A DNA stretch of 64,000 nt from a virus, in the IMG/VR virus record IMGVR_UViG_3300042673_001035, positions 32,001 to 96,000 of that record. One strand, 5' to 3'. The notes under the pieces were generated by a model. It worked only from the letters and a program-made list of their open reading frames with translations. It did not search any database and was not told the origin of the DNA. Positions 2-22,796 of the stretch are shown here, in pieces. Each line of letters opens with the position of its first letter. Within the stretch, counting starts at the first letter, position 1. A program made the position numbers and the translations under genes.

Positions 2-1408
2 AGGCATCTTTATGTCTATGTTTGGTAACGATATTGTTAATAATGATGCCAAATCGGTCACACTTATATTTGGCAATTGTGGTAACTCCGGAAATTGTGG
101 TAATTCTATACTACCTAAATCAACTTCGGGGAATTCAACCGTAGATGGAAAATCAGGAACCGGTGGGCCCATTTTAACTTGATATCCATTATAATTTATA
201 ATTGCAGGTGCCGGTGGAGTTGGAGGTGTGTATTGTGCCGTAACTACCATATTTCCACCCACATTTAATAAATGTAATTGTGCCAAAGATAAAAATGGGT
301 CAAGCATTACATTCGTTTTTGTACTGAAAATAAAACTTGGTGGAGTAAAACTAATAAATGGTGGGTCTGGTATTAACCCCTTTATCTTATCTTCCGCCAA
401 TGCTCTAATCTCTTCTTCAGTGGGAGTTTTATCTTTAATTTGTTTTTCCAATTCTTCTTTCGTTGGAAGTTTCGGTAATTGAATTTGCAAATCTATATCA
501 GGAACTAAACCATTTATCGTATCTTTTACAAATTTTTTAATTTCTTTTAAGTTTGGTTTTGGTTTTGGAATGGAATCTAAAATTGCAACAACTGCTTGAA
601 CATATTGATATATTGGTTGTAATATAATATCTTCAATTGGAGGAATGATTTGTTTTTTAACTTCTTCGATTGCCTGTTCTAATAATTTTTCTTTAGTTTC
701 TTCTATTATTTTTTTTCTATCTGGTAATTTTGGAAATTCAAATTTTAATGCCTTTTTAATTTGTTTTCCAATTGCTGATTTTTTCTTTTTTGCTTCTTTT
801 AATTTCTTTATTATTTCTACTGCACCCTTAACTATTGGGTTATTTTTTATATCCGGTGCAACAACTTCTTTATTTATTATCTTTTGTGCAGTTTCATATA
901 CAGGAATTGCAATCGGTGGTAAAGGTGGAACGGATGGTAAAGTAATTGTTTGTTTTTTTAATTCGTCCTCTAAAATTTTTAATGCTTCCACTTCAGCTTT
1001 ATGTGCTGCAGTAGTTGCAGCTAACGTAATTGGGTCTGGCCCTATGTTTTGAATAGCTCCAGGTGCAGGTGGAGTTGATGGCCATCCTAATGGTTTTATT
1101 AAAGGATTTGGCAATGGTGACATTTCTGCACCTAACCAGTATGCATCAAATGCAGATGGGTATAATTCTTGTAATACATTGAAATTACTACCTACACTAT
1201 CTGTTCCTTTTTTTAATGCAATTTTTATAGCATCTGCCATGCCTTTAACATTACCATTGATAACATTAACTCCGTATAATAAATCCCCACCACTTTTAAT
1301 TGCCTTATCATATTCATTTGCATAAAATTCAGCAAATGCATCAGGATCAGCTTTAAATTGACCAGTAAGCATTGCAGTTAATACATTCAATTTAAAAATT
1401 GCCCACAT
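2..1408 (-). CDS. Proline-rich hypothetical protein, probably virion/baseplate-associated (truncated at window edge)
   Basis: Not in ORF track. ATG at 1408 (MWAIFKLNVLTAMLTGQF...) read by eye as open to the window edge; many PxxP/PxLP segments; directly follows the gp5-like gene. Confidence 0.7.
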   Translation of the reverse strand, partial: MWAIFKLNVLTAMLTGQFKADPDAFAEFYANEYDKAIKSGGDLLYGVNVINGNVKGMADAIKIALKKGTDSVGSNFNVLQELYPSAFDAYWLGAEMSPLPNPLIKPLGWPSTPPAPGAIQNIGPDPITLAATTAAHKAEVEALKILEDELKKQTITLPSVPPLPPIAIPVYETAQKIINKEVVAPDIKNNPIVKGAVEIIKKLKEAKKKKSAIGKQIKKALKFEFPKLPDRKKIIEETKEKLLEQAIEEVKKQIIPPIEDIILQPIYQYVQAVVAILDSIPKPKPNLKEIKKFVKDTINGLVPDIDLQIQLPKLPTKEELEKQIKDKTPTEEEIRALAEDKIKGLIPDPPFISFTPPSFIFSTKTNVMLDPFLSLAQLHLLNVGGNMVVTAQYTPPTPPAPAIINYNGYQVKMGPPVPDFPSTVEFPEVDLGSIELPQFPELPQLPNISVTDLASLLTISLPNIDIKMP

Positions 1409-8267: not shown

Positions 8268-8290
8268 AGTAATAAATATTTGTTTATAAT

Positions 8291-8324
8291 AAAAAAGGTA
8301 GAAGTGTTTAATCTCCTACCTTTT
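8291..8324 (-). terminator. Rho-independent terminator
   Basis: GGTAGGAG/CTTCTACC stem followed by T6 on minus strand, downstream of the Hsp20 gene. Confidence 0.75.
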
Positions 8325-8355
8325 CAATATACGAAAAATAACTGAATTAACCTAA
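8324..8355 (-). promoter_or_regulatory. Bacteroidota-type promoter (weaker match)
   Basis: Minus strand TTAG-N20-TATATTGA preceded by CG as in the other copies. Confidence 0.5.
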
Positions 8356-8733
8356 TTTCGGGGTTAATTTTTTTGGTTTGGACTCTTCTTTTCTTTCAAT
8401 AGTAATTAAGAGAATACCATTTTTAATTTCAGCTTTTGCTTTTTTACCATCAAAGTTTTTACCTACGGTAACTCTTTCTTCAATGTCTGAAATTAATTGA
8501 TTGAAAGGATTTTCTTTGTCCTCTTTTGTTTTTTTGGCTTTGATTTCAATCTTGTCCTCAAAACAATTGATTTCAATATCATCAGGATTGTGTCCTAATA
8601 CTGATAATGCAATTGATGCAGATTCATCTTTAATGTCTACTGCAAATTTGTTTTGAACATAAGTTGTTTTTGTTTTTGATTGTTCGATTGGAAAAAATTC
8701 TTCAAACAATTTACTGTAATCAATCATGTACAT
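8347..8733 (-). CDS. Small heat-shock protein (Hsp20/alpha-crystallin)
   Basis: GHNPDDIEI and KAEIKNGILLITI motifs; 128 aa. Confidence 0.9.
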   Translation of the reverse strand: MYMIDYSKLFEEFFPIEQSKTKTTYVQNKFAVDIKDESASIALSVLGHNPDDIEINCFEDKIEIKAKKTKEDKENPFNQLISDIEERVTVGKNFDGKKAKAEIKNGILLITIERKEESKPKKLTPKLG

Positions 8734-8810: not shown

Positions 8811-9458
8811 TTAAATTATGTTATCTTGTCTTTCAATGATTGTAGACATATGGTCTGCCCAATGCATAATAAATTGTAACTTATAAACCAATTGTTTCTT
8901 TAAGTCGTGACCTGCTAAATACTTTTGATTATCTTCATCATACATACCATCGGTAAGTTTAATTGCAAAATATTCTTTCTCATTATACTGAATGCCGTAA
9001 TGGTTCAATGTAAAAAAAGTTCTATCGGTTAGTGTCATATATGGAATATTCTCATTACGAACAAATAAAGTTCCGTATTTTTTTTGAGACCACTCTTCCT
9101 GGTTTGGTAAATAATGTAATTCACCTTTAACACCCAGCTTTCCTAAATCGTGATGTAGACAACTAAATATCAATTCTTCTTCGGTGAAATCAATCTCTCC
9201 ACCCTGTGATACAAATAGGTCTCTCATTTTAAGAGCGTTCTTACATACATTAAAGATGTGGTCTATATACCCACCTATATATGCGTTATGATAGTGTTTT
9301 GAGCCAGATGCGGCCGATAGTGTAAGGTTAACACCCAATTCTTCTTCGGAATACATATGGAGTAATTTCTCCAATCTTTCTCCTGTGAAATATTTTTTAA
9401 TTATACCTATAAATCGGTCATAATTTGCTTTTAATTCTTGTTCTGTCTTTTGTTTCAT
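8811..9458 (-). CDS. HD-domain phosphohydrolase
   Basis: HNAYIGGYIDH, LHHDLGK and HWAD motifs. Confidence 0.9.
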   Translation of the reverse strand: MKQKTEQELKANYDRFIGIIKKYFTGERLEKLLHMYSEEELGVNLTLSAASGSKHYHNAYIGGYIDHIFNVCKNALKMRDLFVSQGGEIDFTEEELIFSCLHHDLGKLGVKGELHYLPNQEEWSQKKYGTLFVRNENIPYMTLTDRTFFTLNHYGIQYNEKEYFAIKLTDGMYDEDNQKYLAGHDLKKQLVYKLQFIMHWADHMSTIIERQDNII

Positions 9459-9486
9459 AATTTAGAGTTTAATTGTTTATAATACT

Positions 9487-9518
9487 CTAATATACGACAA
9501 ATTTTTGATAATACCAAA
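9487..9518 (-). promoter_or_regulatory. Bacteroidota-type promoter
   Basis: Minus strand TTTG-N20-TATATTAG. Confidence 0.7.
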
Positions 9519-9519
9519 T

Positions 9520-10002
9520 TTAAATTAATGAACTTAATTTTAAATTTTTAGATACCCATACTGCCATTATTTCTCTACAACCAGATGTTATTTCTTTAAC
9601 TTCATGATATTCGGTTTTGCCGTCAAATGTTACCATATCTCCTTTTTTAAAATCAATCAACTCTTCATTAACATATAATTGTCCCCCTTCAAAATTATCA
9701 TTTAACATAATCAAATATGTTTTACTTGATTTGATGTCCAAATGTTTTTTAGCAAAATATCCAGATTCATATTTTATATAATGTAATGAATATATTATTT
9801 CATCTTTTTCTAATGTTATATATTTTGATATGGTATCGACCAATATATTATTAGTTAAATCACAATAAAATATATCTTTTAAATTTATTACGTTTTTAAA
9901 ATCGTGATATGATTTTATTTTATTGTTTTCATTTCCAAAATTATAATTTTTTAATATTATATCAATATCGTTATAATCAATTTTATTTTTAAATATCTCC
10001 AT
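9520..10002 (-). CDS. 2OG-Fe(II) oxygenase
   Basis: HLD...LNDNFEGGQL...HEVKEITSGCR (HxD...H...R). Confidence 0.9.
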   Translation of the reverse strand: MEIFKNKIDYNDIDIILKNYNFGNENNKIKSYHDFKNVINLKDIFYCDLTNNILVDTISKYITLEKDEIIYSLHYIKYESGYFAKKHLDIKSSKTYLIMLNDNFEGGQLYVNEELIDFKKGDMVTFDGKTEYHEVKEITSGCREIMAVWVSKNLKLSSLI

Positions 10003-10005
10003 AAT

Positions 10006-10629
10006 TTATATAATTTTATTTGTTTTATTCTCAAATTTTACAATTGGTTCATTCGTATTTAATAAACTATAAATTTTTTTGTAAAAGTCATAACAACCTT
10101 GCCAACCTGGATGCCAATCCATTGGATTACCCCCTTCATCCGCAATAGAAGATACTTGTATTAATTCTACAAACTCTTTTGTTTTTTCATAAAAATCATC
10201 ATTCCACGTTACAAATATTGGTTCATATTCTTTATAAAAATATTTTAACTTTTTAATAAATAGTATTTCATCGTTTCTACCGTCAGCAAGCCAACTTTCC
10301 GTTTCTTTAACTCTTAATTCTAATAATTTTTTTGCAAACGATTTGTCTTTATACCACTCCCAATTTAAATATTTTATATTGTGATTCGTTTCTCTATCTC
10401 CAAAATATCTTCTTGGAAATCTTCCAGGTGCAGTAAATACGATTACGATTCTATCTCCTTCTCTATGATTTGGAATATTTCCAGTTTGATAAACTATTGA
10501 ATGATTATCAGAACCATATTTACCGAAATTTATAATATTATAGTGATTAGATAAATAATCAACCCAATGTATTTTAGGTAAATCCCAATCAACAAAGCTA
10601 TCTCCACATATATAAAGGTTTGGCTTCAT
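10006..10629 (-). CDS. SGNH/GDSL-like hydrolase or acyltransferase
   Basis: GDSF block I, GSDN, C-terminal DWHP. Confidence 0.75.
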   Translation of the reverse strand: MKPNLYICGDSFVDWDLPKIHWVDYLSNHYNIINFGKYGSDNHSIVYQTGNIPNHREGDRIVIVFTAPGRFPRRYFGDRETNHNIKYLNWEWYKDKSFAKKLLELRVKETESWLADGRNDEILFIKKLKYFYKEYEPIFVTWNDDFYEKTKEFVELIQVSSIADEGGNPMDWHPGWQGCYDFYKKIYSLLNTNEPIVKFENKTNKII

Positions 10630-11126
10630 ATTAATTTATTTGTTTCTAATTTTATGTGTTCATTTTGTAAAAACCAAATTAATGAATATCTATCTCCTTC
10701 TAAAATGGGTGTTATTTCGTGTTCAATTCTTACATCAAATATATAGGTATTTCCTATTTCTTTATTTAACACATATTCATCCGAATTATATAATTTAAAA
10801 TTTCCTCCCTCAAAATCATCATTCAATAATACACCCACTGCGTAAACTCTATTATCTCTAATATCATTATGTTTTCCAAACCATGCACCTTTTGTAAATT
10901 TATGAAAATGTATCCTTTTGTTTATTGTTCTGATTGTAATGTTTGTTTCCTTTTGTAAAAACTCCTTCAACTTATCAAATAACCAAATAGTATTTTTATT
11001 ATATTCTATACTCATTGATTCATACATTCTATCTTTATAGTTCCAATTTTGTTTTTTTGATTTTGATATATCAATAATTGATTGACATTCTTGTTGATTA
11101 AATAATATTTTTTGTTTTAATATCAT
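10626..11126 (-). CDS. 2OG-Fe(II) oxygenase
   Basis: HND...LNDDFEGGNF...HEITPILEGDRYSL. Confidence 0.9.
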   Translation of the reverse strand: MILKQKILFNQQECQSIIDISKSKKQNWNYKDRMYESMSIEYNKNTIWLFDKLKEFLQKETNITIRTINKRIHFHKFTKGAWFGKHNDIRDNRVYAVGVLLNDDFEGGNFKLYNSDEYVLNKEIGNTYIFDVRIEHEITPILEGDRYSLIWFLQNEHIKLETNKLI

Positions 11127-12181
11127 AAAAGTTTTGATAAGTTTTTTCTTAATTTGTGTTTTTTAATTATATCATTCATATTATGAATGCACATTTGATT
11201 AAAACAAACTTTATTTATTTGATTTAAAAATTCTTTAAATTCAGGGTGTGATTCTGACCATATTTGTTTTATTAAAAATTCACCATCTGTATATGTTCCC
11301 CAATTTGTAATTTTATTAAAATATATTTCAACCTTTTCTTTAAGTATATTTTTCATCAATTTATAAAATGAGTCCATCTCTGTGTAATTTGTATCTTGTA
11401 CAACGAATGAAGTTCTAACTTTTTTTATTGTTTCACATTTAGAAATAAAATTTAAGTTTTCAATTAAAACGCCCCAATCCCCACCTCTTCTAATAATTTC
11501 ATATGTTTTTTGAGTTGATGCATCTATACTTATTTCTATTGTTTTTATTAAATGGTGTATGTGGCTTAAACTATTCCACATTTTTTCATTTAATAATAAT
11601 CCATTGGTATGTAAATGAATTTGTTTTATATTTGGGAATTTTTTATTATCAAAATTTAGTAATAATTTTCTAATTGATTTGGATGCAAATGGGTCTGCAG
11701 AACCTGAAAGATATAACATCTTTATATTTTTACCATAAACATCAACAATTTTATTTATTGTATTATCAATAAATTCCAATTCCGCTCCATCCGCCATAAT
11801 TGCCACATTTCTACAAGATGGACATGATAGATTACAACTTCTATCAAATGCAAAATTAATATTAGTCGGGCCGTTTTTATAATCATTAACATTAAAATTG
11901 GTTATATGTTTAAACCCCTGTGGTATGTTTTTATTAATTAACAATTCAGACAAATACGGACATTGTGTTTTTGAACAATATTTGTATGAACCATCTAAAA
12001 TTGATTCTTGTATTTTTTTTAATTCGTCACTCTCCCAAGCAGTTTCAATATCTTTTAAATTGGAAATTTTATTGGGTAACCAAGATGGACAACAACTATA
12101 TATTCCATTTTTATGTGCTTCTAAATATTCAAATGGAGTTGTACATATATATTTTTTTAGTATTTCTTCGTTTGTATCCAT
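11123..12181 (-). CDS. Radical SAM protein with N-terminal SPASM/twitch-like Cys cluster
   Basis: CNLSCPSC (CxxxCxxC), HTNG, ISIDA; N-terminal CTTPF...CCP...CSKTQCP. Confidence 0.9.
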   Translation of the reverse strand: MDTNEEILKKYICTTPFEYLEAHKNGIYSCCPSWLPNKISNLKDIETAWESDELKKIQESILDGSYKYCSKTQCPYLSELLINKNIPQGFKHITNFNVNDYKNGPTNINFAFDRSCNLSCPSCRNVAIMADGAELEFIDNTINKIVDVYGKNIKMLYLSGSADPFASKSIRKLLLNFDNKKFPNIKQIHLHTNGLLLNEKMWNSLSHIHHLIKTIEISIDASTQKTYEIIRRGGDWGVLIENLNFISKCETIKKVRTSFVVQDTNYTEMDSFYKLMKNILKEKVEIYFNKITNWGTYTDGEFLIKQIWSESHPEFKEFLNQINKVCFNQMCIHNMNDIIKKHKLRKNLSKLL

Positions 12182-12187
12182 TTCATC

Positions 12188-12775
12188 TTACATTAATGTT
12201 TTTTTATTTTTGAAAGCTGGAATAGTAAATAAAACATTTGCTGCGATAACAACTCTATCCTTATCCGAATTTGGAGATGTTTCGGGTCTATGATATAACC
12301 CTGCAGGGAAAACAAATAGTTCATCTTCTTCAGGTAAAATGAGTATATCTTGTTCATTATGTATAAACCCCAATCTACCATCTTTTTTTTCTAAATTATT
12401 TGGCATTTGAGCATAATATGTAAAGGTATAATCACTTATTATGGAACTTTTGACTGTTTTTGAAAATTCCATATGATTATGCCAATGGGATTGTGTAGTG
12501 TCACTTCTTAATATAAGAGCCCATGGATAGATACAATAATCTGCATTTTCAATATTTTTATCTTTATAAAATAACTCTTTACATTTTTCTACACCAAAAT
12601 TAAGTATATAATCTATCTCTTTACATTTTAATATAAGCTCTGTTTGGATACCTGGATAGTCGTATGATAAATTATGAGAAAATAATCCTACATTTTCATA
12701 AATTTTTCTAATCAAATCTTCCTTTACAAATGGAAAATTTACTTTGTATCTATGTACATTCATTTCATTAATCAT
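12188..12775 (-). CDS. Putative 2OG-Fe(II) oxygenase (TIGR02466-like)
   Basis: WHNH...YYAQMP...FVFPAGLYHRP...DRVVIAAN. Confidence 0.8.
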   Translation of the reverse strand: MINEMNVHRYKVNFPFVKEDLIRKIYENVGLFSHNLSYDYPGIQTELILKCKEIDYILNFGVEKCKELFYKDKNIENADYCIYPWALILRSDTTQSHWHNHMEFSKTVKSSIISDYTFTYYAQMPNNLEKKDGRLGFIHNEQDILILPEEDELFVFPAGLYHRPETSPNSDKDRVVIAANVLFTIPAFKNKKTLM

Positions 12776-13386
12776 ATTAAGCTATTTTTACTTTTTATTT
12801 TAATATCGTTTTCAATAATCCAACCACTTATTGAATATCTTTTATAGGTTTTATCAACTATTTCATCGACGAGATGTAAATCTTTAATATTTTCAACATC
12901 AAATATATTTAAACTATTAAATTTAGGTAATAATTTATGTGTAATATTATCATTTTTATCAACAAATTGCAAGCACCCACCTTTACTTTCATCTACATCT
13001 TTTGTTAAATTATAAACAAATGCATATTTTCTATCAAACACCGAATCATTGTGTTTTGAAAGAAAACTACCATATGTATATTTTGAAATAAAAATACTTT
13101 GAGGTATGAAAAATTTGTCATTAAGTAAATTACTTAATTTAAATTCAAAATTTAACATTTTTAATAAATCATAGATAAATTCTGTATTTTCAATCTTTTC
13201 AAACCAATAAGAAAATTCACCTTTTTTAAATTTAGATTTTTCAAATTCATAAGATTTTTTATGATTAGAAGATGTTATCCAATCTTGTTGTGAATCTATT
13301 ATTTTATATATAGTTTCTGCAGTTTGTTCAGATAAAAAATTTTCTATCTGTGTTGGTTTGGTTTTTAATTCTTCTATATAATTCAT
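12772..13386 (-). CDS. 2OG-Fe(II) oxygenase (prolyl hydroxylase-like)
   Basis: FLSKHND...YNLT...GGCLQF...HLV...RYSISGW. Confidence 0.9.
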   Translation of the reverse strand: MNYIEELKTKPTQIENFLSEQTAETIYKIIDSQQDWITSSNHKKSYEFEKSKFKKGEFSYWFEKIENTEFIYDLLKMLNFEFKLSNLLNDKFFIPQSIFISKYTYGSFLSKHNDSVFDRKYAFVYNLTKDVDESKGGCLQFVDKNDNITHKLLPKFNSLNIFDVENIKDLHLVDEIVDKTYKRYSISGWIIENDIKIKSKNSLI

Positions 13387-13389
13387 ATA

Positions 13390-14076
13390 TTATATTAAAT
13401 TTATTTTATTTTGAAATCTTGATTCAAAGGTATTCCATAAAAAATTTTTTAAATCATCGTTTAATATAATTTTATTATTTTCTTTTTTTGTTTCATTAGT
13501 TTTTACTATTTTTAATTCTACACCAAATTTTTGGTATATAAAACTTGTAAATTTATCTAATTCTGTAATATCAAATTCGTATGTACATTTTTCATTTTCA
13601 GTCCAAAAGTTTTTAGAACCAAAAATACATAAAGTGCCAGTTAAATTTTTATTTATTTTAGTAAAAAAACCATTGTAACAATCCCGCATTTCTTCTAAAT
13701 TTTCTGAATATATTGCATTTGCAAAATTAGTATTGAAATGTTTGTAGATAAATTCATTATCAACATCTTTCCAATCTATAATTAGTTCATTTTTATGTGT
13801 GTTTTTAGAAACATCAAAAAAAAATTCTAATGCACTTAACCATCTATCAAACCAATTTCTATTAATACAAAACGTTTCTTTTATTCCAAACTCATTTATA
13901 CATTGACTTTTTCTTAAATGGTAGTGTTTTAAATTACTTTTACTATTTTTAATAAATGATTCTATTAAAGGTGATTTTTTAATTTTTAAAACTGACGATT
14001 CAAATGAATTTATTAAAGAAACAGATGCACACCTTGGTATTGAAATCCAAATAAGTTCGTTATTTATGAGTAACAT
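13390..14076 (-). CDS. Sulfotransferase-like protein (Sulfotransfer_2 type)
   Basis: WISIPRCASVS 5'-PSB-like loop and RNWFDRWLSA 3'-PB-like motif. Confidence 0.75.
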   Translation of the reverse strand: MLLINNELIWISIPRCASVSLINSFESSVLKIKKSPLIESFIKNSKSNLKHYHLRKSQCINEFGIKETFCINRNWFDRWLSALEFFFDVSKNTHKNELIIDWKDVDNEFIYKHFNTNFANAIYSENLEEMRDCYNGFFTKINKNLTGTLCIFGSKNFWTENEKCTYEFDITELDKFTSFIYQKFGVELKIVKTNETKKENNKIILNDDLKNFLWNTFESRFQNKINLI

Positions 14077-14088
14077 ATTAAAATATTT

Positions 14089-14358
14089 TTATAGTAACCT
14101 CTTTGATTCTGATTTTACTTTTGTAAAAAATTCATCATCTACATCTTTCCATTTACCTTTTGGACATGGATTTTGATTCTCTGAAAATATTTTTTTGGAT
14201 ATCGGACACCCACATGCCGAACAAATAGGTTTTGTTAATATAAGTTTTTTATACTCACATCCATTACATATGTTAGCTCTATTTAATGCCAACAATCTTT
14301 GGGATTCAGTTGGATTAAATGAAATTATCCAAGCATTAATTATTTCAGTAAAATTCAT
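14089..14358 (-). CDS. Small CxxC metal-binding protein (DUF6171-like)
   Basis: R..ICNGC...CSACGCPI..K...CPKGKW. Confidence 0.75.
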   Translation of the reverse strand: MNFTEIINAWIISFNPTESQRLLALNRANICNGCEYKKLILTKPICSACGCPISKKIFSENQNPCPKGKWKDVDDEFFTKVKSESKRLL

Positions 14359-14378
14359 AACTTATTAATTGAAAAAAT

Positions 14379-14456
14379 TTAAGAATTGTCACTTACTATT
14401 AATGCACCTATTTGGGTCATTATAGTATTAATTGTTGTAATTTCTTGTATAGTCAT
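14379..14456 (-). CDS. Possible 25-aa small ORF
   Basis: MTIQEITTINTIMTQIGALIVSDNS* fills the gap between the Hint protein and the CxxC protein. Confidence 0.4.
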   Translation of the reverse strand: MTIQEITTINTIMTQIGALIVSDNS

Positions 14457-14477
14457 TTTATTAAATATTTTATTTTA

Positions 14478-15986
14478 TTATAAATACAAACAAACTCTAC
14501 CACCATCATAACAAGGGTTATTATAATTGTAAGTACAGGTTTCGTACATTTTATTACATCCACCAGCTCCGATACCAAATACGAAACAACGTTGGCATTG
14601 AAAGTTATGTTCGATTGCTACAAACATACCATCATCGGTTTTAGTTAAGAATAAGTGTTCATCCTGAACTCCAATCTGCCATCCATCAAATCCTTCTACA
14701 CTATTTGTTATATTTGTTACAGTTTTTTCGTTTACTTCAATTGTTTCTAAATTATCCGTTTGTACTAAAAGTATTTTATCACCTATTTGTAACATATCTA
14801 CTTCTTCATCTTCGGAATGAAGTTTTGTCCATTTAACAATATCACCTCTCTTTATAAGATATTGTGATATGGATGTATCCTGCCATGTTGTATTATCATC
14901 AAATGTAATTGTTGTCATTGGTGATAATACATTTGATTTTGTTTTAAACTGAACGACATTTGTACTAAATGTTGAATTTGATAAAAATTCATTAAAATCA
15001 ACTTGATAATTTCGTAATTCGTTTGATGAATCTAAATTTGGTTGATTTTCATATAATTTAATAGTCTTTATTATATCACCAGCTTGTAATTCTAATCCTG
15101 TTTTATATGTACCATCTGCCATCATTACCAAATCGGTGTCTAACAATTTAGGCCTACTAATATCTTGGGTGTTTGTGATATATGACTTTCTAAAGTTTGA
15201 GTCTATTTCGAAAGTTTCAGAATTATAAGTAACATTATCATACAATTGTACATTACCATGTTTAGTATATGCACCAATTGAAATAGATTCTAATGTCGAT
15301 GGATATAATAAATTATATGAACGAACTATACTGACTACATTATTTTCAATTTTATTTAAATTTAAATGATACTCCATTAAAAAATATTCATCGGTTACAT
15401 TTTGTAATACCACATCTAATTCTTCCAATGTAGTTACTTTATAAAATTTAGGGTATTCGTTTCTGTCGTATACCGGATATTTAGCTTTTAAAATAAAATT
15501 TGGATGTACTCCATTATCCGATATCGTTGTTATATTTGATATAAGTTCGTCATTTTCATTTTTATATGCAAATTGATGGCCAAATTCAGTAGATTGGATT
15601 AACTTTAAAAAATTAACTTTATCCTTACAATAAGTTTCATCCAATATCGCCGTAACATCATATGCACTTCTTATAATTAGATGTGTATCGGAATCATCAA
15701 CGTGTGGGATAGTTATATTACCACCTACTTCCTCAAAAGCATATTCAATATTTAAACCAGTACATAAAATTTCTAATTTATCGTGAAATTGTCTTATGCC
15801 ACCAATATATGTTACTTTAGTAAAGTTATTGGTAGTTATGAAATTGGATAATTCATCTAAATTAAATAAACTATTATATTGTTCTTGTGTTAGTCTGTTG
15901 ATACCTGAATTTGTGTTTGTTTCAATTGGTAATAAATTACCTACCGAATTATATACAAAGTCGGTTCCTAATAATACTGTTCTCAT
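14478..15986 (-). CDS. Circularly permuted ATP-grasp-like + Hint domain + C-terminal Cys-rich peptide fusion
   Basis: N-terminal GTDF...IETNTNSG, later FILKAKYP and YFLMEY; Hint block A-like KLLDTDLVMMADGTYK...LQAGD; terminal block ...HLFL...IEHN; then a 41-aa peptide with 6 Cys. Confidence 0.7.
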   Translation of the reverse strand: MRTVLLGTDFVYNSVGNLLPIETNTNSGINRLTQEQYNSLFNLDELSNFITTNNFTKVTYIGGIRQFHDKLEILCTGLNIEYAFEEVGGNITIPHVDDSDTHLIIRSAYDVTAILDETYCKDKVNFLKLIQSTEFGHQFAYKNENDELISNITTISDNGVHPNFILKAKYPVYDRNEYPKFYKVTTLEELDVVLQNVTDEYFLMEYHLNLNKIENNVVSIVRSYNLLYPSTLESISIGAYTKHGNVQLYDNVTYNSETFEIDSNFRKSYITNTQDISRPKLLDTDLVMMADGTYKTGLELQAGDIIKTIKLYENQPNLDSSNELRNYQVDFNEFLSNSTFSTNVVQFKTKSNVLSPMTTITFDDNTTWQDTSISQYLIKRGDIVKWTKLHSEDEEVDMLQIGDKILLVQTDNLETIEVNEKTVTNITNSVEGFDGWQIGVQDEHLFLTKTDDGMFVAIEHNFQCQRCFVFGIGAGGCNKMYETCTYNYNNPCYDGGRVCLYL

Positions 15987-16007
15987 ATTTTATGTTTCTA
16001 TTTGTCT

Positions 16008-16015
16008 ATAAATAT
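16008..16015 (-). promoter_or_regulatory. Candidate phage late-promoter motif ATATTTAT
   Basis: Same 8-mer lies just upstream of the starts at 8267, 21340, 35572 and 37646 (variant before 3028). Confidence 0.35.
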
Positions 16016-16032
16016 AAATTAATTAAATAAAA

Positions 16033-17832
16033 TTATATTATTTTTTTTCCATATTGAGGTTTTGGAATATCGTTTAAGTCTTCAAATAAGATAATAGGTT
16101 CTTCAATGGTTTCAATCTCATTTGAGATTATAGTGTATGATTGTGATCCTGTTTCTTGTTTTTCTTTTAATTCTAAATATAATCCTCTATTATAGATTGA
16201 ATATGGTATTCCTATTCTTTTAAATGTCTCCTCAGCTTGTTCAATTCTTCTTAACCTATCCATTGGTGTATTCCACTTTGTTGTGAAATTAACACCATTC
16301 TCATATTCTAAATATTGTTTCTCCACATCTCTCCACTTTACTAATAGAGTTTGATGTAATAAAAATACGGAACAGGTTACTATTTCTGCCATACAATCTC
16401 TAAATTCCTCTACAAAGTCTAAAGTTTTTTGAAAATCTTCATCGGTTTCGTTTAGATATCCAACAATGATTTGCATACCAAACAACAATGGATATTCAAA
16501 TTCAGTTCCCTTATTTTCTTCATTTACCTTTCTTACATTTTCAAAAATTTCTCTCACACCTTGAACATCGGTGTATTTTTTCATATGTTTAAGAACTGGT
16601 TCGGAATAAGATTCGAATCCTGTAATAAACTTTGTTAGTCCTGCTCTACGATATAATCTTATAGTTTCTATATCTCTCATTTGAGATTGTAGTCTAACAT
16701 TACCACCGATATTAATATCTAATCCTCTTTCGATAATTTTTTCACACAATTCTTTTAACCACTTTGGATTACCATTGATAATTGAATCGTGACAAAAGAA
16801 ATACTTCTTTCCTTTTGCAACCCATCCTTCTAATTCCTCTAACACATTTTCAACGGTTCTATATCGGTATTCAGGTATATAATCCGGTACTGAACAAAAC
16901 GAACAACGATAAGGACAACCTCTACTCATTGTAATAGGTTTAGTGTCCTGATAAACTGACTTATAATAAAAATTATCTTCTAAAGAACTATAATCCGGAA
17001 TAGGTAATGCATCCATTGGAATATTTGCTCTCATTTTATTGTGGATAAAAATACCATTTAATTGCCAAATTAATCCAGGTATAGACATTAAGGACTCCTC
17101 ACTCCAATCTGACTTAAGTATTTCTACAAATGTCATCTCACCATCACCTCTACTGATTGCATCGATGAAAGTATATTCGTTTGTTTTATAATTTGAATTG
17201 GGTAATCTACCAAAGTCTAACACTTCAACACCATTACCACCAATTAAAATTTTAACCTCTGGATATTTTTCTTTTACTAATTTTGCAATTGCAAGTGTTG
17301 CATCTATATTACCATCGATAATACTAAATCCTAAAAATTTAGGCTTTGCTTTCTCTAAATATCTACCAACGAATCCGTATGCAATATCATATGTTTCCTG
17401 AAAATTATATAATAGATGAAACTGACTTTGTTTGGAGTATGTATTAAATAAATTGAAAAACTCACCTTGCTTATCCGGTGGATTTAAAAAGAAATAGTCA
17501 ATTACTGGGTCAATGATTGCAACCCTTAATTCGGGTTCATATTTGTCTATCCAAGACTTTAAACCAACTATGCCGGAATAATAACCTGATTCATTGATAT
17601 TAGGAACTTGTAATAACAAACAATCTTGTTCTTCTATATCTTGAAAATGGAATTTATGTTCTATCTCCAATCCTTTGCCTTTCTCTGCAAAAACAGTTTG
17701 ACGCATATATTGTAGTAAATCGACTTTGATGTCAAATACTTCAACACCACTTTTCATTTGGTCATCTACTCTATTCTCAACTTTTTGAATTTGACTTTCA
17801 ATATCAGGACTAATGATTTCGTCAATTTGCAT
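16033..17832 (-). CDS. B12-binding radical SAM enzyme (class B methyltransferase-like)
   Basis: Cobalamin-binding region (LGFS...ILIGG...GDGE), SRGCPYRCSFC, GFES, IIVGYLNET. Confidence 0.9.
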   Translation of the reverse strand: MQIDEIISPDIESQIQKVENRVDDQMKSGVEVFDIKVDLLQYMRQTVFAEKGKGLEIEHKFHFQDIEEQDCLLLQVPNINESGYYSGIVGLKSWIDKYEPELRVAIIDPVIDYFFLNPPDKQGEFFNLFNTYSKQSQFHLLYNFQETYDIAYGFVGRYLEKAKPKFLGFSIIDGNIDATLAIAKLVKEKYPEVKILIGGNGVEVLDFGRLPNSNYKTNEYTFIDAISRGDGEMTFVEILKSDWSEESLMSIPGLIWQLNGIFIHNKMRANIPMDALPIPDYSSLEDNFYYKSVYQDTKPITMSRGCPYRCSFCSVPDYIPEYRYRTVENVLEELEGWVAKGKKYFFCHDSIINGNPKWLKELCEKIIERGLDINIGGNVRLQSQMRDIETIRLYRRAGLTKFITGFESYSEPVLKHMKKYTDVQGVREIFENVRKVNEENKGTEFEYPLLFGMQIIVGYLNETDEDFQKTLDFVEEFRDCMAEIVTCSVFLLHQTLLVKWRDVEKQYLEYENGVNFTTKWNTPMDRLRRIEQAEETFKRIGIPYSIYNRGLYLELKEKQETGSQSYTIISNEIETIEEPIILFEDLNDIPKPQYGKKII

Positions 17833-17849
17833 GAATATAATAATTTAAT

Positions 17850-17881
17850 TAAATATACAAATAATTATTGAATTTTCCAAA
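17850..17881 (-). promoter_or_regulatory. Bacteroidota-type promoter
   Basis: Minus strand TTTG-N20-TATATTTA upstream of the B12 radical SAM gene. Confidence 0.6.
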
Positions 17882-17910
17882 TAAATCAATTTTATTCAAA
17901 AAAATAAAAT

Positions 17911-18558
17911 CTATATTAATGTTGAACCATTGTTATTAATATAATTAATCATTATATCAGCCAATACTTTACAGCCAAATTCGGATAGGTGGTGGTCATT
18001 TATTACGCCTTTTGTTTCATTTATTATTTCCATCTTACCTTTATAATATGACCAATATAAATTATTTACTATTTTACTTTTTTCAAATTCGGAAAAAGCT
18101 GACCAATAAACTATTTTGTTATTTTTAAATGTATAATTTAACAAATCCATCCATCCCATTATTTCTTTTAAAAATAATTCGGAATCTCTATTTACTAAAA
18201 TTTCTTGTAAAGTCCTCTCACTTATAAGTGGTAAATCTGGTAAATGATTAAGAATTATTGTATGGAAAAATTTGTTAGACATATCTGCTAGTCTAAATCT
18301 TGTTATTGATGACCATCCTATTATTATATAATCACCATCTTTGATGTTATTGATTTGTTTTATAATGGAATCTAATATCGTATAATTATCACTACCACCT
18401 TTAGCACAATTTCGAAATGGTAATTCTAAATTATCCGCAAGAATTTCTGGCCAAAATTTGGGTTCATACCCTTTCCATTTGATATATTCATCTGCCCACC
18501 GATAAGATTTATTATATCCCTCAGTATTAGAATCACCAAAAAACCATATCTTATTCAT
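17911..18558 (-). CDS. SGNH/GDSL-like hydrolase or acyltransferase
   Basis: FFGDSNTEG, GGSDN, DHHLS; close paralog of 30030..30677. Confidence 0.8.
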   Translation of the reverse strand: MNKIWFFGDSNTEGYNKSYRWADEYIKWKGYEPKFWPEILADNLELPFRNCAKGGSDNYTILDSIIKQINNIKDGDYIIIGWSSITRFRLADMSNKFFHTIILNHLPDLPLISERTLQEILVNRDSELFLKEIMGWMDLLNYTFKNNKIVYWSAFSEFEKSKIVNNLYWSYYKGKMEIINETKGVINDHHLSEFGCKVLADIMINYINNNGSTLI

Positions 18559-18584
18559 ATTTTATAATATTGTTTAAATTAATT

Positions 18585-18628
18585 GGGGTGGGGGTTGGGG
18601 GAGAAAGTCGTTTTTTAAGAAAATTTTT
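18585..18628 (+). repeat. G-tract element G4-T-G5-TT-G5-AGAAAGTCGTTTTTTAAGAAAATTTTT (copy 1)
   Basis: Intergenic; matches the reverse complement of 28111..28151. Confidence 0.75.
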
Positions 18629-18651
18629 AGAACATACCTTCTATTGATAGT

Positions 18652-19353
18652 CTATATCAATTCTCTTTTTATACTTATTATACTTTTTAATTTCATTTTA
18701 AGATTCAATATATCATCTTCCAATTTATCAATTTCATTTTGTTTTTCCATTAATAAGTCGTATGATGTCAGTCCTCTTTCATTATTTAAAATTCGTTTTA
18801 ACCATAACTCATCTTTGTCACATAAAATATATAATTCATCCAATTTGTCTTTTGATATCATAGATAAAATTTCAACTTTTGATTTAAAATGTTTCATTTT
18901 ATGGGAATCATATAATTCGGGTTTATATTCAATTTTATAATCAAAAAATTCCGACAATTTGTCTAGATGTATCATTTTGAATCCAAAAATATTCCATATA
19001 CGATACAGATTTTTATATAAGTTTGGAGACCAATGTTCGGATTTATCATCAATCATATTTTCAATAATTACATCCAAATTCCAATCTTGTTTACGATTAT
19101 TGGAGGTGTGTATTTTGCCCTCTATATTTCCCCACACATAATCGGTTTGAATCGCCGATATGATATGTTCACACGGATTTCTATATGTTACAATTGAATT
19201 TTGTGTAATATCGATTGGTGGATTAGGTGAATTTGGGTCTATATCCACTTCCGATTGGTTTATCCAATTAGAATTTCTTACAAATCGAATACCACACTTT
19301 GGAATACAAATAATTGGTTCTCTATCTTTATATTCATGTTTTGATAAAATCAT
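18652..19353 (-). CDS. Sulfotransferase-like protein
   Basis: ICIPKCG and YRNPCEHIISA motifs; C-terminal coiled coil. Confidence 0.6.
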   Translation of the reverse strand: MILSKHEYKDREPIICIPKCGIRFVRNSNWINQSEVDIDPNSPNPPIDITQNSIVTYRNPCEHIISAIQTDYVWGNIEGKIHTSNNRKQDWNLDVIIENMIDDKSEHWSPNLYKNLYRIWNIFGFKMIHLDKLSEFFDYKIEYKPELYDSHKMKHFKSKVEILSMISKDKLDELYILCDKDELWLKRILNNERGLTSYDLLMEKQNEIDKLEDDILNLKMKLKSIISIKRELI

Positions 19354-19502
19354 AGTATTGTGTTTATTTCTTCATTAGGTCTCTTTTAAGACGCTTTAGA
19401 TACCATATAGGAAAATATATCACCCAATACATAGAAACGACAAATACACCACCCATAATGACAATGGACATGGTTATAAGTCTTAAGATTAGTAATATAG
19501 TA

Positions 19503-19778
19503 TTAATGAGAGATACCATTACCATAAATTGATGTCCAGATGCCGACTATACCAACCAAACACCAAAAGGCATTCAATATAATGTATGCACGGTTATCTC
19601 TTTCCCATGCAGCATAAGTTAAAATAACGGCATCGATAGTATTCCATATCCACATCCAAAGAAAAGGAGTATCAGGTCCCATAATAGAAAGAGTACCAAA
19701 TGCAATGATTCTCATCACTACTCCGATATTCTCCATCCATTTAATTGTGGTTTCACTTAATAACTTTAGTTTTGACAT
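19503..19778 (-). CDS. Small 3-TM membrane protein
   Basis: Three hydrophobic helices, LNAFW motif (CBU_0592-like). Confidence 0.6.
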   Translation of the reverse strand: MSKLKLLSETTIKWMENIGVVMRIIAFGTLSIMGPDTPFLWMWIWNTIDAVILTYAAWERDNRAYIILNAFWCLVGIVGIWTSIYGNGISH

Positions 19779-19783
19779 AACTT

Positions 19784-20809
19784 TTATTTAGTTTGTAGTT
19801 TCTTAATTTGTTCTTGTAGTTCTACTACCTTACGAGCAAGATACCCTTGATTTTGTGCATCCGTAGTTTGGCCTTGTTGTATTTGTTTTTCTACATTTGC
19901 TCTATCTTCTTTTGCCTTTCTCTCTATATCGGACAAACCTTTATCTAATTCTTTTTTAGCATCGTCTAAATCAGTCTTAATAGTATTAATAGGATTAGTT
20001 TCAACGGATACTAATGTACTACTTTCAGTACTCTTAACACTATGATTGTCTTCGTCACTATCGGACTCTGCAATAAGGTCTTTTTGAATTATACCATAGA
20101 TATTAGGAGTAGGTATTATGCCATCAAAGAAAGTACTCTTAATACGATTAAAATCTTTTCTGAGTAAATCTAATTGTTTATCTAACTCTATAAGAAAGGT
20201 TTGTAGTTTGAGTGGGTCGAAAATAGTTTTTTCTTGGTCGGTTACTGTTGCAATAGGTACAAACGTATAGTGAGGGTTTAATTGTTTATCTACCATTTTT
20301 TCATAGTCTACCACTTCAAACTTATCGGATGGTCGTTTACTTACCTTATCTAATGTATAATTAATTTGGTCTATTAACTTATTGGGTATACCTTCTGTTA
20401 ATCCGTTTTCTGCATCATCTATATAAGATACATCTACAACGCCTGCCTGTCTATTCTGTAAATCTCTACTATCTATACTCTTTTGTAGTTGGGTTACGTC
20501 CAATTCAATAATCTTAATTGTTTTACCCATACCCACTTCTTTATCCTTAACCATTATCTTACCATTCTCTACAATATCATAGTGTGGGTTCTTTGAGTCT
20601 TTTATATCGTTAAGTGTTTGTGGAGAACATAAATAATCTAAACCTATCTTTACTATAATACCATTTCCTTTAATAACTGGTTTAAGGTTTGCAAGTGGTG
20701 TACCAATAGGCAGGTATATAGGTTTAATATCGTTTGATGCAGATATCTTCCAATTCTTGCCATCGGTTGTATATCTTTCCGAATTTTGATTGATTAACTT
20801 AATACTCAT
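19784..20809 (-). CDS. Hypothetical protein with C-terminal coiled coil
   Basis: 341-aa ORF in an operon-like arrangement. Confidence 0.65.
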   Translation of the reverse strand: MSIKLINQNSERYTTDGKNWKISASNDIKPIYLPIGTPLANLKPVIKGNGIIVKIGLDYLCSPQTLNDIKDSKNPHYDIVENGKIMVKDKEVGMGKTIKIIELDVTQLQKSIDSRDLQNRQAGVVDVSYIDDAENGLTEGIPNKLIDQINYTLDKVSKRPSDKFEVVDYEKMVDKQLNPHYTFVPIATVTDQEKTIFDPLKLQTFLIELDKQLDLLRKDFNRIKSTFFDGIIPTPNIYGIIQKDLIAESDSDEDNHSVKSTESSTLVSVETNPINTIKTDLDDAKKELDKGLSDIERKAKEDRANVEKQIQQGQTTDAQNQGYLARKVVELQEQIKKLQTK

Positions 20810-21098
20810 TACTTATTTCTTTATATGCCTTTCTATATAACTTTAATTCATCCTTAATAGTAGTTTTACGATTTACTCTTATATCGTATATCGTTCTTTG
20901 TAGTTCTTTATACAATCCCATATAGATTGCATCTGTTATTATATAGTTAATAGTTAATTTTCTTTCATATTCTTTATACTCTTTCTTTTCAAATTCATCT
21001 CTTACTTCCTCTAATGGTTGCAAAGAAAAGATTTTTGCAACTCCAATAGATGTGCCAAACTCTTGTGCAGCTTTGTCAAAGACTTCTTCTTTTAACAT
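20799..21098 (-). CDS. Hypothetical protein
   Basis: 99-aa ORF overlapping the next start. Confidence 0.6.
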   Translation of the reverse strand: MLKEEVFDKAAQEFGTSIGVAKIFSLQPLEEVRDEFEKKEYKEYERKLTINYIITDAIYMGLYKELQRTIYDIRVNRKTTIKDELKLYRKAYKEISNEY

Positions 21099-21109
21099 AT
21101 AGAATAGAT

Positions 21110-21340
21110 TTAATAAGGTTTCTTTTTGGTTGGAATTGGTATAACTAATTTTTTTTGCATGATAGTAGACATGTGTGGAGTAAGATTGATGCCTACACCT
21201 CCGTCATTACCCCATCCCTGATTACCACAACGAGTTATAAAATCCTCATCACTCTCTCCTTCTAATCTTTCACACCTACCCTCTAACACTTTAACCAATA
21301 CCTCTTTTAACTTAATCATTTCTGAATGTTTATTGTACAC
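21110..21340 (-). CDS. Hypothetical protein
   Basis: 76-aa ORF preceded by ATATTTAT; start may be the internal MIKLK. Confidence 0.55.
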   Translation of the reverse strand: MYNKHSEMIKLKEVLVKVLEGRCERLEGESDEDFITRCGNQGWGNDGGVGINLTPHMSTIMQKKLVIPIPTKKKPY

Positions 21341-21523
21341 ATAAATATCTTAGATAAAAGAAATTCAGTTAAAGGGTATATGTGTGTATCATACATCATG
21401 TCAAAAAAGAGCTATAGGTAAAAAATTGGACCCCGGTATTCGCACGTATCCGACCCGGTTTTACAACTCGCGCTTTTTTTGAGCGACATGAAACTGTTAC
21501 TCGTTTCTCTCCAACCCCGCCAC

Positions 21524-21593
21524 AAAAAAATGAGCACAAAGAGACCGACAGCATTTACGCTATCGGTTCATCCTATGATTAGGAGCTCTTTGT
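21524..21593 (-). terminator. Branched (three-way junction) structure followed by a U-tract; terminator or structured RNA
   Basis: ACAAAGAG/CTCTTTGT closes two hairpins (TCCTA/TAGGA and ACCGATAGC/GCTGTCGGT), then GCTCA and T7. Confidence 0.6.
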
Positions 21594-21634
21594 AATTAAA
21601 ATAAAAATATGAAAACCAATGAAAACTTTTCTCT

Positions 21635-21847
21635 TTAAAATTGTCTACTTACCCACTTAGGATAATTACTATATTGTTGCATGAGTTCAGTTGCTCGATA
21701 ATCTTTCACTTCTACTCTACAACCTATATTCATCTCTTTGCACCAATGTTGAAAGTTCTCATCTGCTAATACCTTCTCTCTTTCTTTCTCTATACTATGT
21801 AATCTATCTATGTCTATACTATTGATTGTCTCTACTATTGTATTCAT
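21635..21847 (-). CDS. Hypothetical protein
   Basis: 70-aa ORF. Confidence 0.55.
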   Translation of the reverse strand: MNTIVETINSIDIDRLHSIEKEREKVLADENFQHWCKEMNIGCRVEVKDYRATELMQQYSNYPKWVSRQF

Positions 21848-21898
21848 ACTACTATGTTTTATAACTTAACTGAATTTATTTTTATTAAGATTGTCCGA

Positions 21899-22129
21899 TT
21901 AAGCTTTTGCTTTGGGTGGACTCTGCGTGAATAACTCTTTAAGGTATTCTTCCTCATCCTCCATTTGTTCAGCGGTCATCTCATTGTATCTATCTAACAA
22001 TGCAATTGCGGACCTGATTTCACTTAACTGCTCACTAGCAGCCCACTTCGGTTTGCCGTCTTGCAGACCTTTAATCTTCTTCATCAATACTATCTCGTCT
22101 TGTTTTAACTTCTTAATTGCGTAGTCCAT
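21899..22129 (-). CDS. Hypothetical protein
   Basis: 76-aa ORF. Confidence 0.6.
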   Translation of the reverse strand: MDYAIKKLKQDEIVLMKKIKGLQDGKPKWAASEQLSEIRSAIALLDRYNEMTAEQMEDEEEYLKELFTQSPPKAKA

Positions 22130-22535: not shown

Positions 22536-22555
22536 ATTCGTTTTAATATGGTTAT

Positions 22556-22586
22556 AAAAAAAGTGGTACTCTCGGGGTACCACTTT
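22556..22586 (-). terminator. Rho-independent terminator
   Basis: AAAGTGGTAC/GTACCACTTT stem with T7, downstream of the tRNA-like gene. Confidence 0.8.
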
Positions 22587-22764: not shown

Positions 22765-22796
22765 TTCATTGGTACGAACTAATAGTCCGTACTAAA

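Follow-up and report, generated by a model that had tools for sequence, protein, structure and literature searches.

A Permuted ATP-Grasp Domain, a Predicted Cleavage-Only Hint Domain and a Cysteine-Rich Tail Joined in One Protein of Large Phages: A Candidate Self-Processing Precursor-Enzyme

Introduction

The ligases YgiC, glutathionylspermidine synthetase (GspS) and eukaryotic glutathione synthetase form a group that is circularly permuted relative to the classical ATP-grasps. In YgiC, GspS and the glutathione synthetases the C-terminal α-carboxylate of a peptide is activated for attack by an amine. A predicted domain of this permuted fold stands at the N-terminus of a protein encoded at positions 14478..15986 of a 64,000-base stretch of viral DNA (IMG/VR record IMGVR_UViG_3300042673_001035, positions 32,001 to 96,000; hereafter the window), where it is joined to a Hint domain, which appears to have kept only the residues for C-terminal cleavage, and to a cysteine-rich tail. 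The component parts of this protein are of known kinds: the Hint-driven release of a variable C-terminal cargo has already been described for polymorphic toxins (PMC3482391), and the Hint domain BIL2 has been reported to make an isopeptide via a lysine of its C-terminal flank (PMC8616854). The new elements, none of which was found in the literature searched, are a permuted ATP-grasp as fusion partner, a Hint that is predicted only to cleave, and a mini-protein cargo containing cysteines and a lysine, accompanied by a zinc-ribbon partner.

We favor the reading that this protein is a self-processing precursor-enzyme (probability roughly 0.55), in which cyclization of the terminal asparagine of the Hint domain would release the tail as a peptide, and the ligase would then form an amide at the lysine of this peptide.

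A Family of Three-Part Phage Proteins

The window protein, termed P0001, is translated from an open reading frame on the minus strand, as are the other window genes given below with coordinates, and comprises an ATG start, 502 amino acids and a stop codon (14478-14480). The first-pass annotation of the window had divided it into three parts, and this layout was borne out: the motif GTDF...IETNTNSG is located at residues 7-28, FILKAKYP at 164-171 and YFLMEY at 201-206, while the second segment starts with KLLDTDLVMMADGTYK at residue 280 and contains HLFL at 444-447 and IEHN at 458-461. Its coordinates proved exact by codon arithmetic, with K280 starting at 15149, N461 ending at 14604 and the tail occupying 14481-14603. 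The AlphaFold2 (AF2) model of the full-length protein has a pLDDT of 87.3 and a pTM of 0.84. The three-part design is more than a chance arrangement, as seen from the presence of only two cysteines in the 461-residue body, the contrast in cysteine content across the family, and the recurrence of the design in at least 702 proteins.

These proteins, at least 702 among 8000 candidates scored, match P0001 at E ≤ 0.001; all named members are called “hypothetical protein” and none bears a precomputed Pfam domain. Clustering at 50% leaves 243 representatives with this design, of which 72 match at E ≤ 1e-30, and the Atlas clusters of the family consist to 96-100% of viruses. In IMG/VR, 98 relatives were confirmed on contigs of up to 335 kb, one of which has two copies. 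This is a viral contig of 211,168 bases (L006 and L050), in which the copies are about 38 kb apart, share 76% and 45% identity with P0001, and each have a zinc-ribbon neighbor beside them. Members number in the hundreds and come from large T4-like phages and jumbo phages of natural waters, and none is annotated. Residue conservation is reported here for an alignment of 93 homologues, with identities down to 22%.

Existing resources do not capture the family. P0001 matched no Pfam family at E ≤ 10 and no NCBIfam model, its best PHROGs matches were at E = 0.19 and 0.21, and as a single sequence it retrieved one match from the PDB sequences (E = 0.59), which was taken as chance. A tblastn search against 50,697 GenBank phage records returned no match. 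Among 185,579 species genomes, 24 pattern matches were obtained and none was confirmed, which, with two short patterns designed on close relatives, is weak evidence for absence from cellular genomes. The first-pass annotation did not recognize the architecture as a described phage system, and our search of the full-text literature, with most subscription journals and supplements (which may hold family listings) outside its coverage, likewise returned no description of an ATP-grasp–Hint fusion. Within the same coverage there was neither a cysteine-plus-lysine mini-protein cargo with a zinc-ribbon partner nor a cleavage-only Hint fusion of this kind. The passages on ATP-grasps in one survey of jumbo phages deal with R2K and RNA-ligase ATP-grasps, and not with the ATP-grasp–Hint family (PMC7824862). 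The family therefore seems to be undescribed, and would be the first case we have found of an amide ligase joined to a putative cleavage-only Hint domain and to its own peptide cargo.

The N-Terminal Domain Resembles Permuted ATP-Grasp Ligases

The amide ligase-like domain spans residues 1-279 (15150..15986) and was identified by modeling and structural search. A model of these residues built from 56 homologues (pLDDT 91.4) was compared with structure representatives using VIA, which returned 16 chains at Z ≥ 5, nearly all of them ATP-grasp enzymes. The top match is YgiC (Z 8.2, root-mean-square deviation (rmsd) 4.7, 203 aligned residues), followed by GspS (Z 7.7, with model residues 2..274 aligned to 311..608), a putative gamma-glutamylcysteine synthetase (Z 7.7), the glutathione synthetases of nematode, trypanosome and soybean (Z 7.7-7.4), trypanothione synthetase (Z 6.2) and yeast glutathione synthetase (Z 5.7). 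Foldseek, when run with the full-length model, also retrieved glutathione synthetases and YgiC at E values of about 1e-4. The permuted enzymes (YgiC, GspS, eukaryotic glutathione synthetases and others) align from model residue 1-5 to about residue 275, whereas the classical ATP-grasps (TTLL11, ArgX, LysX, TTL, PurK, Ddl, RimK and bacterial GshB) align only from residue 48-62 and leave out the N-terminal hairpin bearing D9, E22 and N24. This is the behavior expected of a circular permutation that the domain has in common with the first group.

The three hairpin residues make up a D...ExN metal/ATP motif at the extreme N-terminus (codons within 15915..15962), with D9 being present in 91 of the 93 homologues (the other two have gaps) and E22 and N24 in all of them. 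We take these residues to be equivalent to D318, E330 and N332 of GspS, which is consistent with the aligned ranges. The candidate ATP-binding lysine K167 of the FILKA motif (15486..15488) and R222 (15321-15323) are found in 93/93 homologues, as are R106, D116 and N163. The D...ExN motif precedes the lysine and the hinge, and this order, together with the permuted folds matching best (Z 8.2-7.4) and from residue 1-5, supports the reversed-order ATP-grasp put forward in the first-pass annotation. The profile of the domain (A3) found no match among PDB sequences at E ≤ 10, and a profile search weakly matched residues 10-32 with the part of a biotin carboxylase domain that carries its ExN (E = 1.3). 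Of the two folds that had been proposed, the Hint fold is thus recovered by structure and by profile, while the ATP-grasp fold is recovered by structure and has no match at the sequence level. Because the Z scores are middling and a sequence-level match is missing, the domain is filed as an ATP-grasp fold and not as a member of a named family. According to the model, the N-terminal domain is a permuted ATP-grasp amide ligase fold with intact residues of the metal-, ATP- and acylphosphate-binding types, the roles of which are assigned from their motif positions.

The Hint Domain Retains the C-Terminal Cleavage Residues

Residues 280-461 (14604..15149) form the Hint domain, which had been proposed in the first-pass annotation and is supported by both fold and profile matches. 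The best structural match is BIL2, a bacterial intein-like (BIL) domain from the polyubiquitin-like BUBL1 locus of Tetrahymena thermophila (PDB 6Y75, 6TMM), with a Foldseek E value of 2.5e-8 and, against model residues 277-466, a VIA Z score of 14.8 (rmsd 3.0, 148/153 residues). In total, 50 BIL, intein and Hedgehog entries match residues 277-466, those ranked behind BIL2 having Z scores of 14.1-11.4. Furthermore, the family profile detects the KlbA intein of Methanocaldococcus jannaschii (PDB 2JMZ) at E = 1.3e-7 and BIL2 at E = 1.3e-3. Residue 1 of the inteins aligns to K280 in those rows that start there, and the terminal asparagine aligns to N461. In the KlbA profile alignment T371-x-x-S374 lies on the T-x-x-H of the intein, and H444 lies on the block F histidine.

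The catalytic positions of the N-terminal half have drifted. Position 1, where the first-pass annotation had correctly read a lysine in P0001, is K in 36, H in 23, L in 13, I in 8, S in 4, E in 2, Q in 2 and T in 1 of the 93 homologues, and is never a cysteine. The block B histidine position (S374) is S in 64, T in 11, N in 7 and A in 6, and is never a histidine, while position 444 of block F is H in 45 and D in 33. By contrast, the His460-Asn461 pair of block G at the predicted scissile end (14604..14609) is almost invariant, with H460 found in 92/93 and N461 in 93/93. The residue that follows the asparagine (+1) was assessed in the tails defined by a ..HN pattern, which were obtained from 199 of 269 proteins; the 70 proteins left out comprise many fragments shorter than 430 aa as well as full-length proteins of 440-676 aa in which the pattern missed the motif. 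Most tails have A, V, Y, P, I, L, G or F at +1 (Phe in P0001, in agreement with the first-pass annotation), and C, S or T occurs there in 19/199, so that splicing is not expected. With the N-terminal splicing machinery gone and the C-terminal half strongly constrained, the established intein mechanism leaves only asparagine cyclization and cleavage of the downstream bond. Without selection for asparagine chemistry, it would be difficult to account for a His-Asn pair that persisted as the other catalytic positions changed.

The Cysteine-Rich Tails and Their Obligatory Lysine

The predicted released cargo of P0001 is the 41-residue tail (residues 462-502, 14481..14603) with the sequence FQCQRCFVFGIGAGGCNKMYETCTYNYNNPCYDGGRVCLYL (FQC...CLYL), which contains six cysteines at tail positions 3, 6, 16, 23, 31 and 38. 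Across the 199 proteins cysteine accounts for 17.6% of tail residues compared with 0.48% of the bodies; the tails have a median length of 41 aa and contain six cysteines in 79 cases, eight in 76 and ten in 13. The tails cannot be aligned except at the cysteines, and their non-cysteine identity to P0001 is 7%, whereas the ATP-grasp part reaches 38% and the Hint part 31%. Both tail termini are highly variable, with 0-14 residues following the last cysteine. Among eight close relatives, by contrast, the tail is 78% identical, and each of the three segments has a ratio of nonsynonymous to synonymous substitution rates (dN/dS) of about 0.21 (28 pairwise comparisons among 8 sequences), so that the tail is a constrained coding sequence, the product of which differs between lineages and is not fast-evolving within a lineage. 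Positive selection on the tail among close relatives was accordingly rejected, its dN/dS being the same as that of both domains. The first-pass annotation had suggested a search for a conserved ligase and Hint with a hypervariable Cys-rich tail; this pattern is present across the homologues, but among the close relatives the tail is not hypervariable. The cysteine framework, mostly of six or eight residues, suggests that the cargo may be a disulfide-knotted or metal-bound mini-protein, the sequence of which would be swapped freely between phages.

For the analysis of other tail residues a looser pattern was applied to proteins of at least 430 aa, which recovered some of the full-length proteins missed by the narrow ..HN pattern and yielded 221 tails. 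Of these, 177 are short tails of 20-70 aa, while 41 longer and three shorter ones were handled apart; P0051 and P0104 in the long-tail list are artefacts, since the pattern caught an earlier HN. All 177 short tails contain a lysine, compared with an expectation of 136.8 and a maximum of 148 in 500 shuffles, and no other non-cysteine residue is enriched. A lysine is likewise present in all 38 tail clusters, which share less than 35% non-cysteine identity with each other (P = 4.9e-5). The position of the lysine is not fixed: it follows the third cysteine (C-x-K) in 86 tails, as does K479, the only lysine of the P0001 tail (14550..14552), it follows the first cysteine in another group, and it is found within the last four residues in 48/177. 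Asp and Glu are both absent from 34/177 short tails. A residue that is obligatory and yet free in position reads as a chemical handle.

Longer cargos are seen in other relatives. In some of them the His-Asn is followed by BACON-domain extensions (700-1240 aa), suggesting a glycan- or surface-binding cargo. The relatives P0183, P0186, P0220, P0225 and P0234 are 1129-1667 aa long with a long extension after His-Asn, and BACON domains were found in the three of these that were scanned (P0183, P0186 and P0220). Others have a longer cysteine-rich segment that ends in a Peptidase_S74 self-cleaving chaperone domain. In a further group, a cysteine-rich peptide ending in Gly-Gly is followed by a canonical second Hint (Cys1, His-Asn) and then by a short lysine-bearing stub. 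These two-Hint relatives include P0199 (L082:4564-6558), P0206, P0219, P0229, P0185, P0201, P0235, P0173 and P0248, the last of which carries two Hints of the second type in tandem with linkers of only 2 and 6 residues. The peptide between the Hints has no lysine, the stub past the second Hint always does, and the single-Hint siblings of these proteins end in ...GG-x-K. The second Hint has the look of an inserted BIL-type domain, or of a substitute for the ligase step that would work by way of a thioester.

The cargo also differs between otherwise similar phages. One contig (L092:1-13884) is syntenic with window positions 8811-25382 and encodes neighbor proteins of 70-98% identity, but its ATP-grasp–Hint allele is only 28.7% identical to that of the window and carries a different cargo, namely a cysteine-rich segment with Peptidase_S74. 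The locus therefore behaves as an exchangeable cassette site, at which alleles are replaced.

The Zinc-Ribbon Partner and Other Neighbors

Gene neighborhoods were counted in 80 loci of IMG/VR relatives and in 23 further loci from distant relatives with S74 cargo or two Hints. The constant neighbor is an 89-residue zinc-ribbon-like protein (14089..14358), of which a homologue is encoded on the same strand in 78/80 and 22/23 loci, that is, in 100/103. The gene lies within 300 bp downstream in 45/78 loci and immediately upstream in a few. Invariant residues of the protein are W10, A24, R27, C34, C46, C49, C51, K56, C65 and W70, and its C-terminal end is conserved as K-[TS]-hydrophobic-hydrophobic. 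The family matches TFIIB/RPB12 ribbons weakly (E = 0.024-0.15), and DUF6171 weakly in 7/46 members. Of 27 close homologues, ten are named “ribosomal protein L37E” (JGI), one is a “hypothetical protein” and the rest are nameless; the L37E identity was rejected as an annotation that reflects a zinc-ribbon look-alike. A prediction of complexes between the P0001 and zinc-ribbon families gave scores of 0.41, 0.03 and 0.08 against a mark of 0.32, which speaks neither for nor against binding. A paralogue is present elsewhere in the window (33252-33551), with the pattern C-x2-C ... CGC-x-IS-x-K ... CP-x2-KW; the protein stops at the KW motif, and no ATP-grasp gene adjoins it.

Two further genes are frequent but not constant neighbors and possible members of the system, a 2-oxoglutarate (2OG)-Fe(II) oxygenase (10626..11126; PF13640, E = 1.4e-7; 69/80 and 17/23 loci), which belongs to a family with multiple copies in these phages, and a 228-residue protein without a Pfam or NCBIfam match (13390..14076; 55/80 and 16/23 loci). 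A radical S-adenosylmethionine (SAM) protein with a cysteine-rich N-terminal region is encoded at 11123-12181. It stays below every NCBIfam cut-off, with the best model being that of twitch domain-containing radical SAM proteins (69 versus 170 bits), and a twitch-type homologue is found in 42/80 and 1/23 loci, while a B12 radical SAM gene lies near 7/80 and 1/23. Such neighbors, which resemble tailoring enzymes of peptides that ribosomes synthesize and that are modified after translation (RiPPs), are thus not constant across loci. Other loci have neighboring genes for a halogenase, a glycosyltransferase, thymidylate synthase and gp32. One of these, a flavin-dependent tryptophan-halogenase-like gene (L084:3714-4934; Pfam E = 7e-97), lies two genes away from the module on a jumbo-phage contig.

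The parent viral record has 116,680 bases and was judged to be about 52% complete. The window is AT-rich (GC 0.23-0.34), has nearly every gene on the minus strand, and contains phage genes for a DNA ligase, CobS/CobT-like proteins and a carbamoyltransferase. Models of Gp23 and psbA found no match in the record, which is uninformative given its completeness of about 52% and a Gp23 control that was silent everywhere. Auxiliary genes at 3052-8733 encode a carbamoyltransferase, a peptide deformylase, a DUF2061 membrane protein, a cytidylyltransferase-like protein and Hsp20. Many relatives have the genes of the DUF2061 and cytidylyltransferase kinds directly upstream of the ATP-grasp–Hint gene, which means that about 7 kb has been rearranged or inserted in the window. 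A single freshwater metatranscriptome run contained 8% of the sampled words, and three 151-base contig pieces with a depth of 2 covered 15477-15986 only, a coverage that is too thin for claims on transcription, on habitat or on the uncovered part of the gene.

Proposed Mechanism and Alternative Explanations

In the proposed mechanism Asn461 would cyclize to a succinimide and thereby cut the Asn461-Phe462 bond, so that the peptide would be released without splicing, as in intein C-terminal cleavage and in cargo release by the Hint domains of polymorphic toxins. On the evidence of the conserved residues, the peptide is probably freed in this way. The ATP-grasp domain would then spend ATP on an amide bond involving the peptide, for which the obligatory lysine, acting as the amine, is the most likely site; that the domain acts on the freed cargo at all is possible, at odds a little short of even. 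The carboxylate donor would be external, with the C-terminus of the neighboring zinc-ribbon protein, or a virion or host protein, as candidates. Taken to its full extent, the protein would be a self-contained peptide-dispensing ligase that couples a knotted, lysine-bearing mini-protein by an isopeptide bond to the zinc-ribbon C-terminus or to a virion or host protein, a picture that is tentative and, in all these particulars together, doubtful.

Several observations weigh against the self-processing precursor-enzyme. Both cleavage and ligation are inferred computationally. The ATP-grasp call draws on a middling fold score (best Z 8.2) and on motifs, with no sequence model matching, and the tail is modeled with low confidence (pLDDT 52-64 in the full-length model). 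In the Hint domain, block F has an Asp instead of His in 33/93 homologues, and the +1 residue is a proline in 14/199 tails. The tail sequences are related, so that the shuffle statistics for lysine overstate their independence, and a lysine that moves also fits a loose electrostatic or recognition role. The uniform dN/dS of close relatives does not show the tail under positive selection. In addition, the paralogue without an adjoining ATP-grasp gene indicates that the zinc-ribbon family is not exclusive to the pairing with ATP-grasp–Hint proteins.

An intact ATP-grasp enzyme that is not cleaved, with the Hint as a degenerate spacer and the tail as a metal-binding zinc or iron-sulfur module or the tip of a virion-attached adhesin, would account for the loss of the N-terminal catalytic residues; even cysteine numbers also suit metal sites, the cytoplasm of an infected cell is reducing, and the S74 and BACON domains of the relatives are typical of virion fibers and decorations. 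We consider this explanation unlikely, since His-Asn is kept in 92/93 and 93/93 homologues while the other catalytic positions drifted, and some cargos are bounded on their far side by a second self-cleaving module, either S74 or a Cys1 Hint. If the cargo is released, the ligase could instead close it into a ring, activating the C-terminal carboxylate of the peptide for attack by its new α-amine or by its lysine, to give a cyclic cysteine-knotted product for which the enzyme would have served as leader. The only α-carboxylate available in cis is indeed the protein's own C-terminus, the nearest ATP-grasp folds are peptide-carboxylate ligases, a tail holds six cysteines in about 40 residues, and radical SAM and 2OG oxygenase genes are nearby. 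However, the lysine is obligatory and head-to-tail cyclization is less likely because it needs none, while a ring between lysine and C-terminus is impossible in the 48 tails that have their lysine among the last four residues. Moreover, the variable tail ends, with 0-14 residues past the last cysteine, and the inconstant tailoring genes speak against it, so that macrocyclization appears quite improbable. Side-chain rings of the graspetide (microviridin) type, in which an ATP-grasp cross-links Asp/Glu with Ser/Thr/Lys side chains of a core peptide, were rejected as a general product, given that 34/177 tails lack both Asp and Glu.

In polymorphic-toxin systems the immunity protein varies along with its toxin, and this bears on a further alternative, in which the cargos are Hint-released toxins or adhesins of a polymorphic-toxin or bacteriocin-like system, with the small downstream gene encoding immunity and the ATP-grasp being a module for loading or trafficking. 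In 45/78 loci there is a small gene immediately downstream, the allele in the syntenic phage has been replaced like a cassette, and the relative P0186 has a weak match to PT-HINT (PF07591, E = 3.4e-4). A Hint domain directly before a variable C-terminal cargo is, furthermore, the hallmark of polymorphic toxins (PMC3482391). The small neighbor, however, is conserved and homologous across the short-tail, S74 and two-Hint cargo types; it tracks the enzyme part rather than the cargo, and this speaks against a role in immunity. Neither a secretion nor a trafficking domain was seen, the cargos scanned (18/41 long forms) contained no known toxin domain, and a polymorphic-toxin system is therefore an improbable explanation.

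Implications

If the full picture with isopeptide coupling is right, an ATP-grasp would here do what ubiquitin-like or BUBL conjugation does elsewhere, with a freely exchangeable cargo, and large phages would have an enzyme for attaching interchangeable binding or toxic peptides to particles or targets. If the favored reading holds, ribosomal peptide products could be made by a new route, with the enzyme acting as leader and with protease-free self-release, and a new protein-conjugation chemistry may be added. The family may account for a hypervariable locus in these phages. The 38 clusters among the 177 tails are a natural set of unrelated cysteine-framework mini-protein classes on one scaffold and could be useful for peptide engineering, while the Hint domain is of interest to intein technology as a potentially clean C-terminal-cleavage module.

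Comparison With Known Systems

The N-terminal domain has the same fold and strand order as the permuted ligases YgiC (E. coli), GspS, trypanothione synthetase and the eukaryotic glutathione synthetases, with D...ExN before the lysine and the hinge. The phage domain, however, is much smaller (about 275 aa), lacks the extra substrate domains and detectable sequence similarity, and is fused to a Hint domain. A small zinc-ribbon protein paired with an ATP-grasp ligase is also seen in the LysW/LysX amino-group carrier system; in the phages the pairing is one of gene neighborhood. LysX/ArgX-LysW complexes are among the fold matches of the N-terminal domain (Z 5.2-5.5), and the conserved C-terminal end of the phage zinc-ribbon protein could be a ligation site. 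By contrast, LysX is a classical, non-permuted ATP-grasp, and LysW has an acidic tail of which a Glu side chain is used, whereas in the phage protein the last residues are K-[TS]-hydrophobic-hydrophobic. For the cargo, a comparison with knottins, which have three knotted disulfides, extends to cysteine counts and spacings only, the tail being modeled with low confidence, and a comparison with SCIFF/ranthipeptide systems, where a six-cysteine peptide has its dedicated radical SAM/SPASM maturase, draws on the six-cysteine tail and the radical SAM gene at 11123-12181, the match of which is below cut-off and which has homologues at 42/80 and 1/23 loci.

The KlbA intein provides the best sequence-profile match to the Hint part of the family, and position 1 is neither Cys nor Ser in both the window protein and KlbA. 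KlbA has Ala1 and still splices via its +1 Cys. With the PT-HINT domains of polymorphic toxins the phage Hint shares the location just ahead of a highly variable C-terminal cargo (PMC3482391), and PT-HINT clearly matches the second Hint of the two-Hint relatives. In the phage proteins, however, the N-terminus is an enzyme-like domain instead of a secretion or filament module, most cargos are about 40 aa long, and the adjacent gene does not co-vary; moreover, the family appears only in viruses, as judged from the Atlas clusters and from a pattern-limited genome scan that found no relative. The closest structural counterpart of the phage Hint is BIL2, and both domains process, or are predicted to process, a small flanking module instead of splicing a host protein. 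The C-flank lysine with which BIL2 forms an isopeptide (PMC8616854) has a parallel in the lysine that the short phage cargos always contain. The flanks themselves are ubiquitin-like domains in BIL2 and cysteine-rich peptides in the phages. Finally, BIL2 has a Cys1 and operates through a thioester without ATP, whereas the phage Hint has Lys1, lacks the block B histidine and is fused to a putative ATP-dependent ligase.

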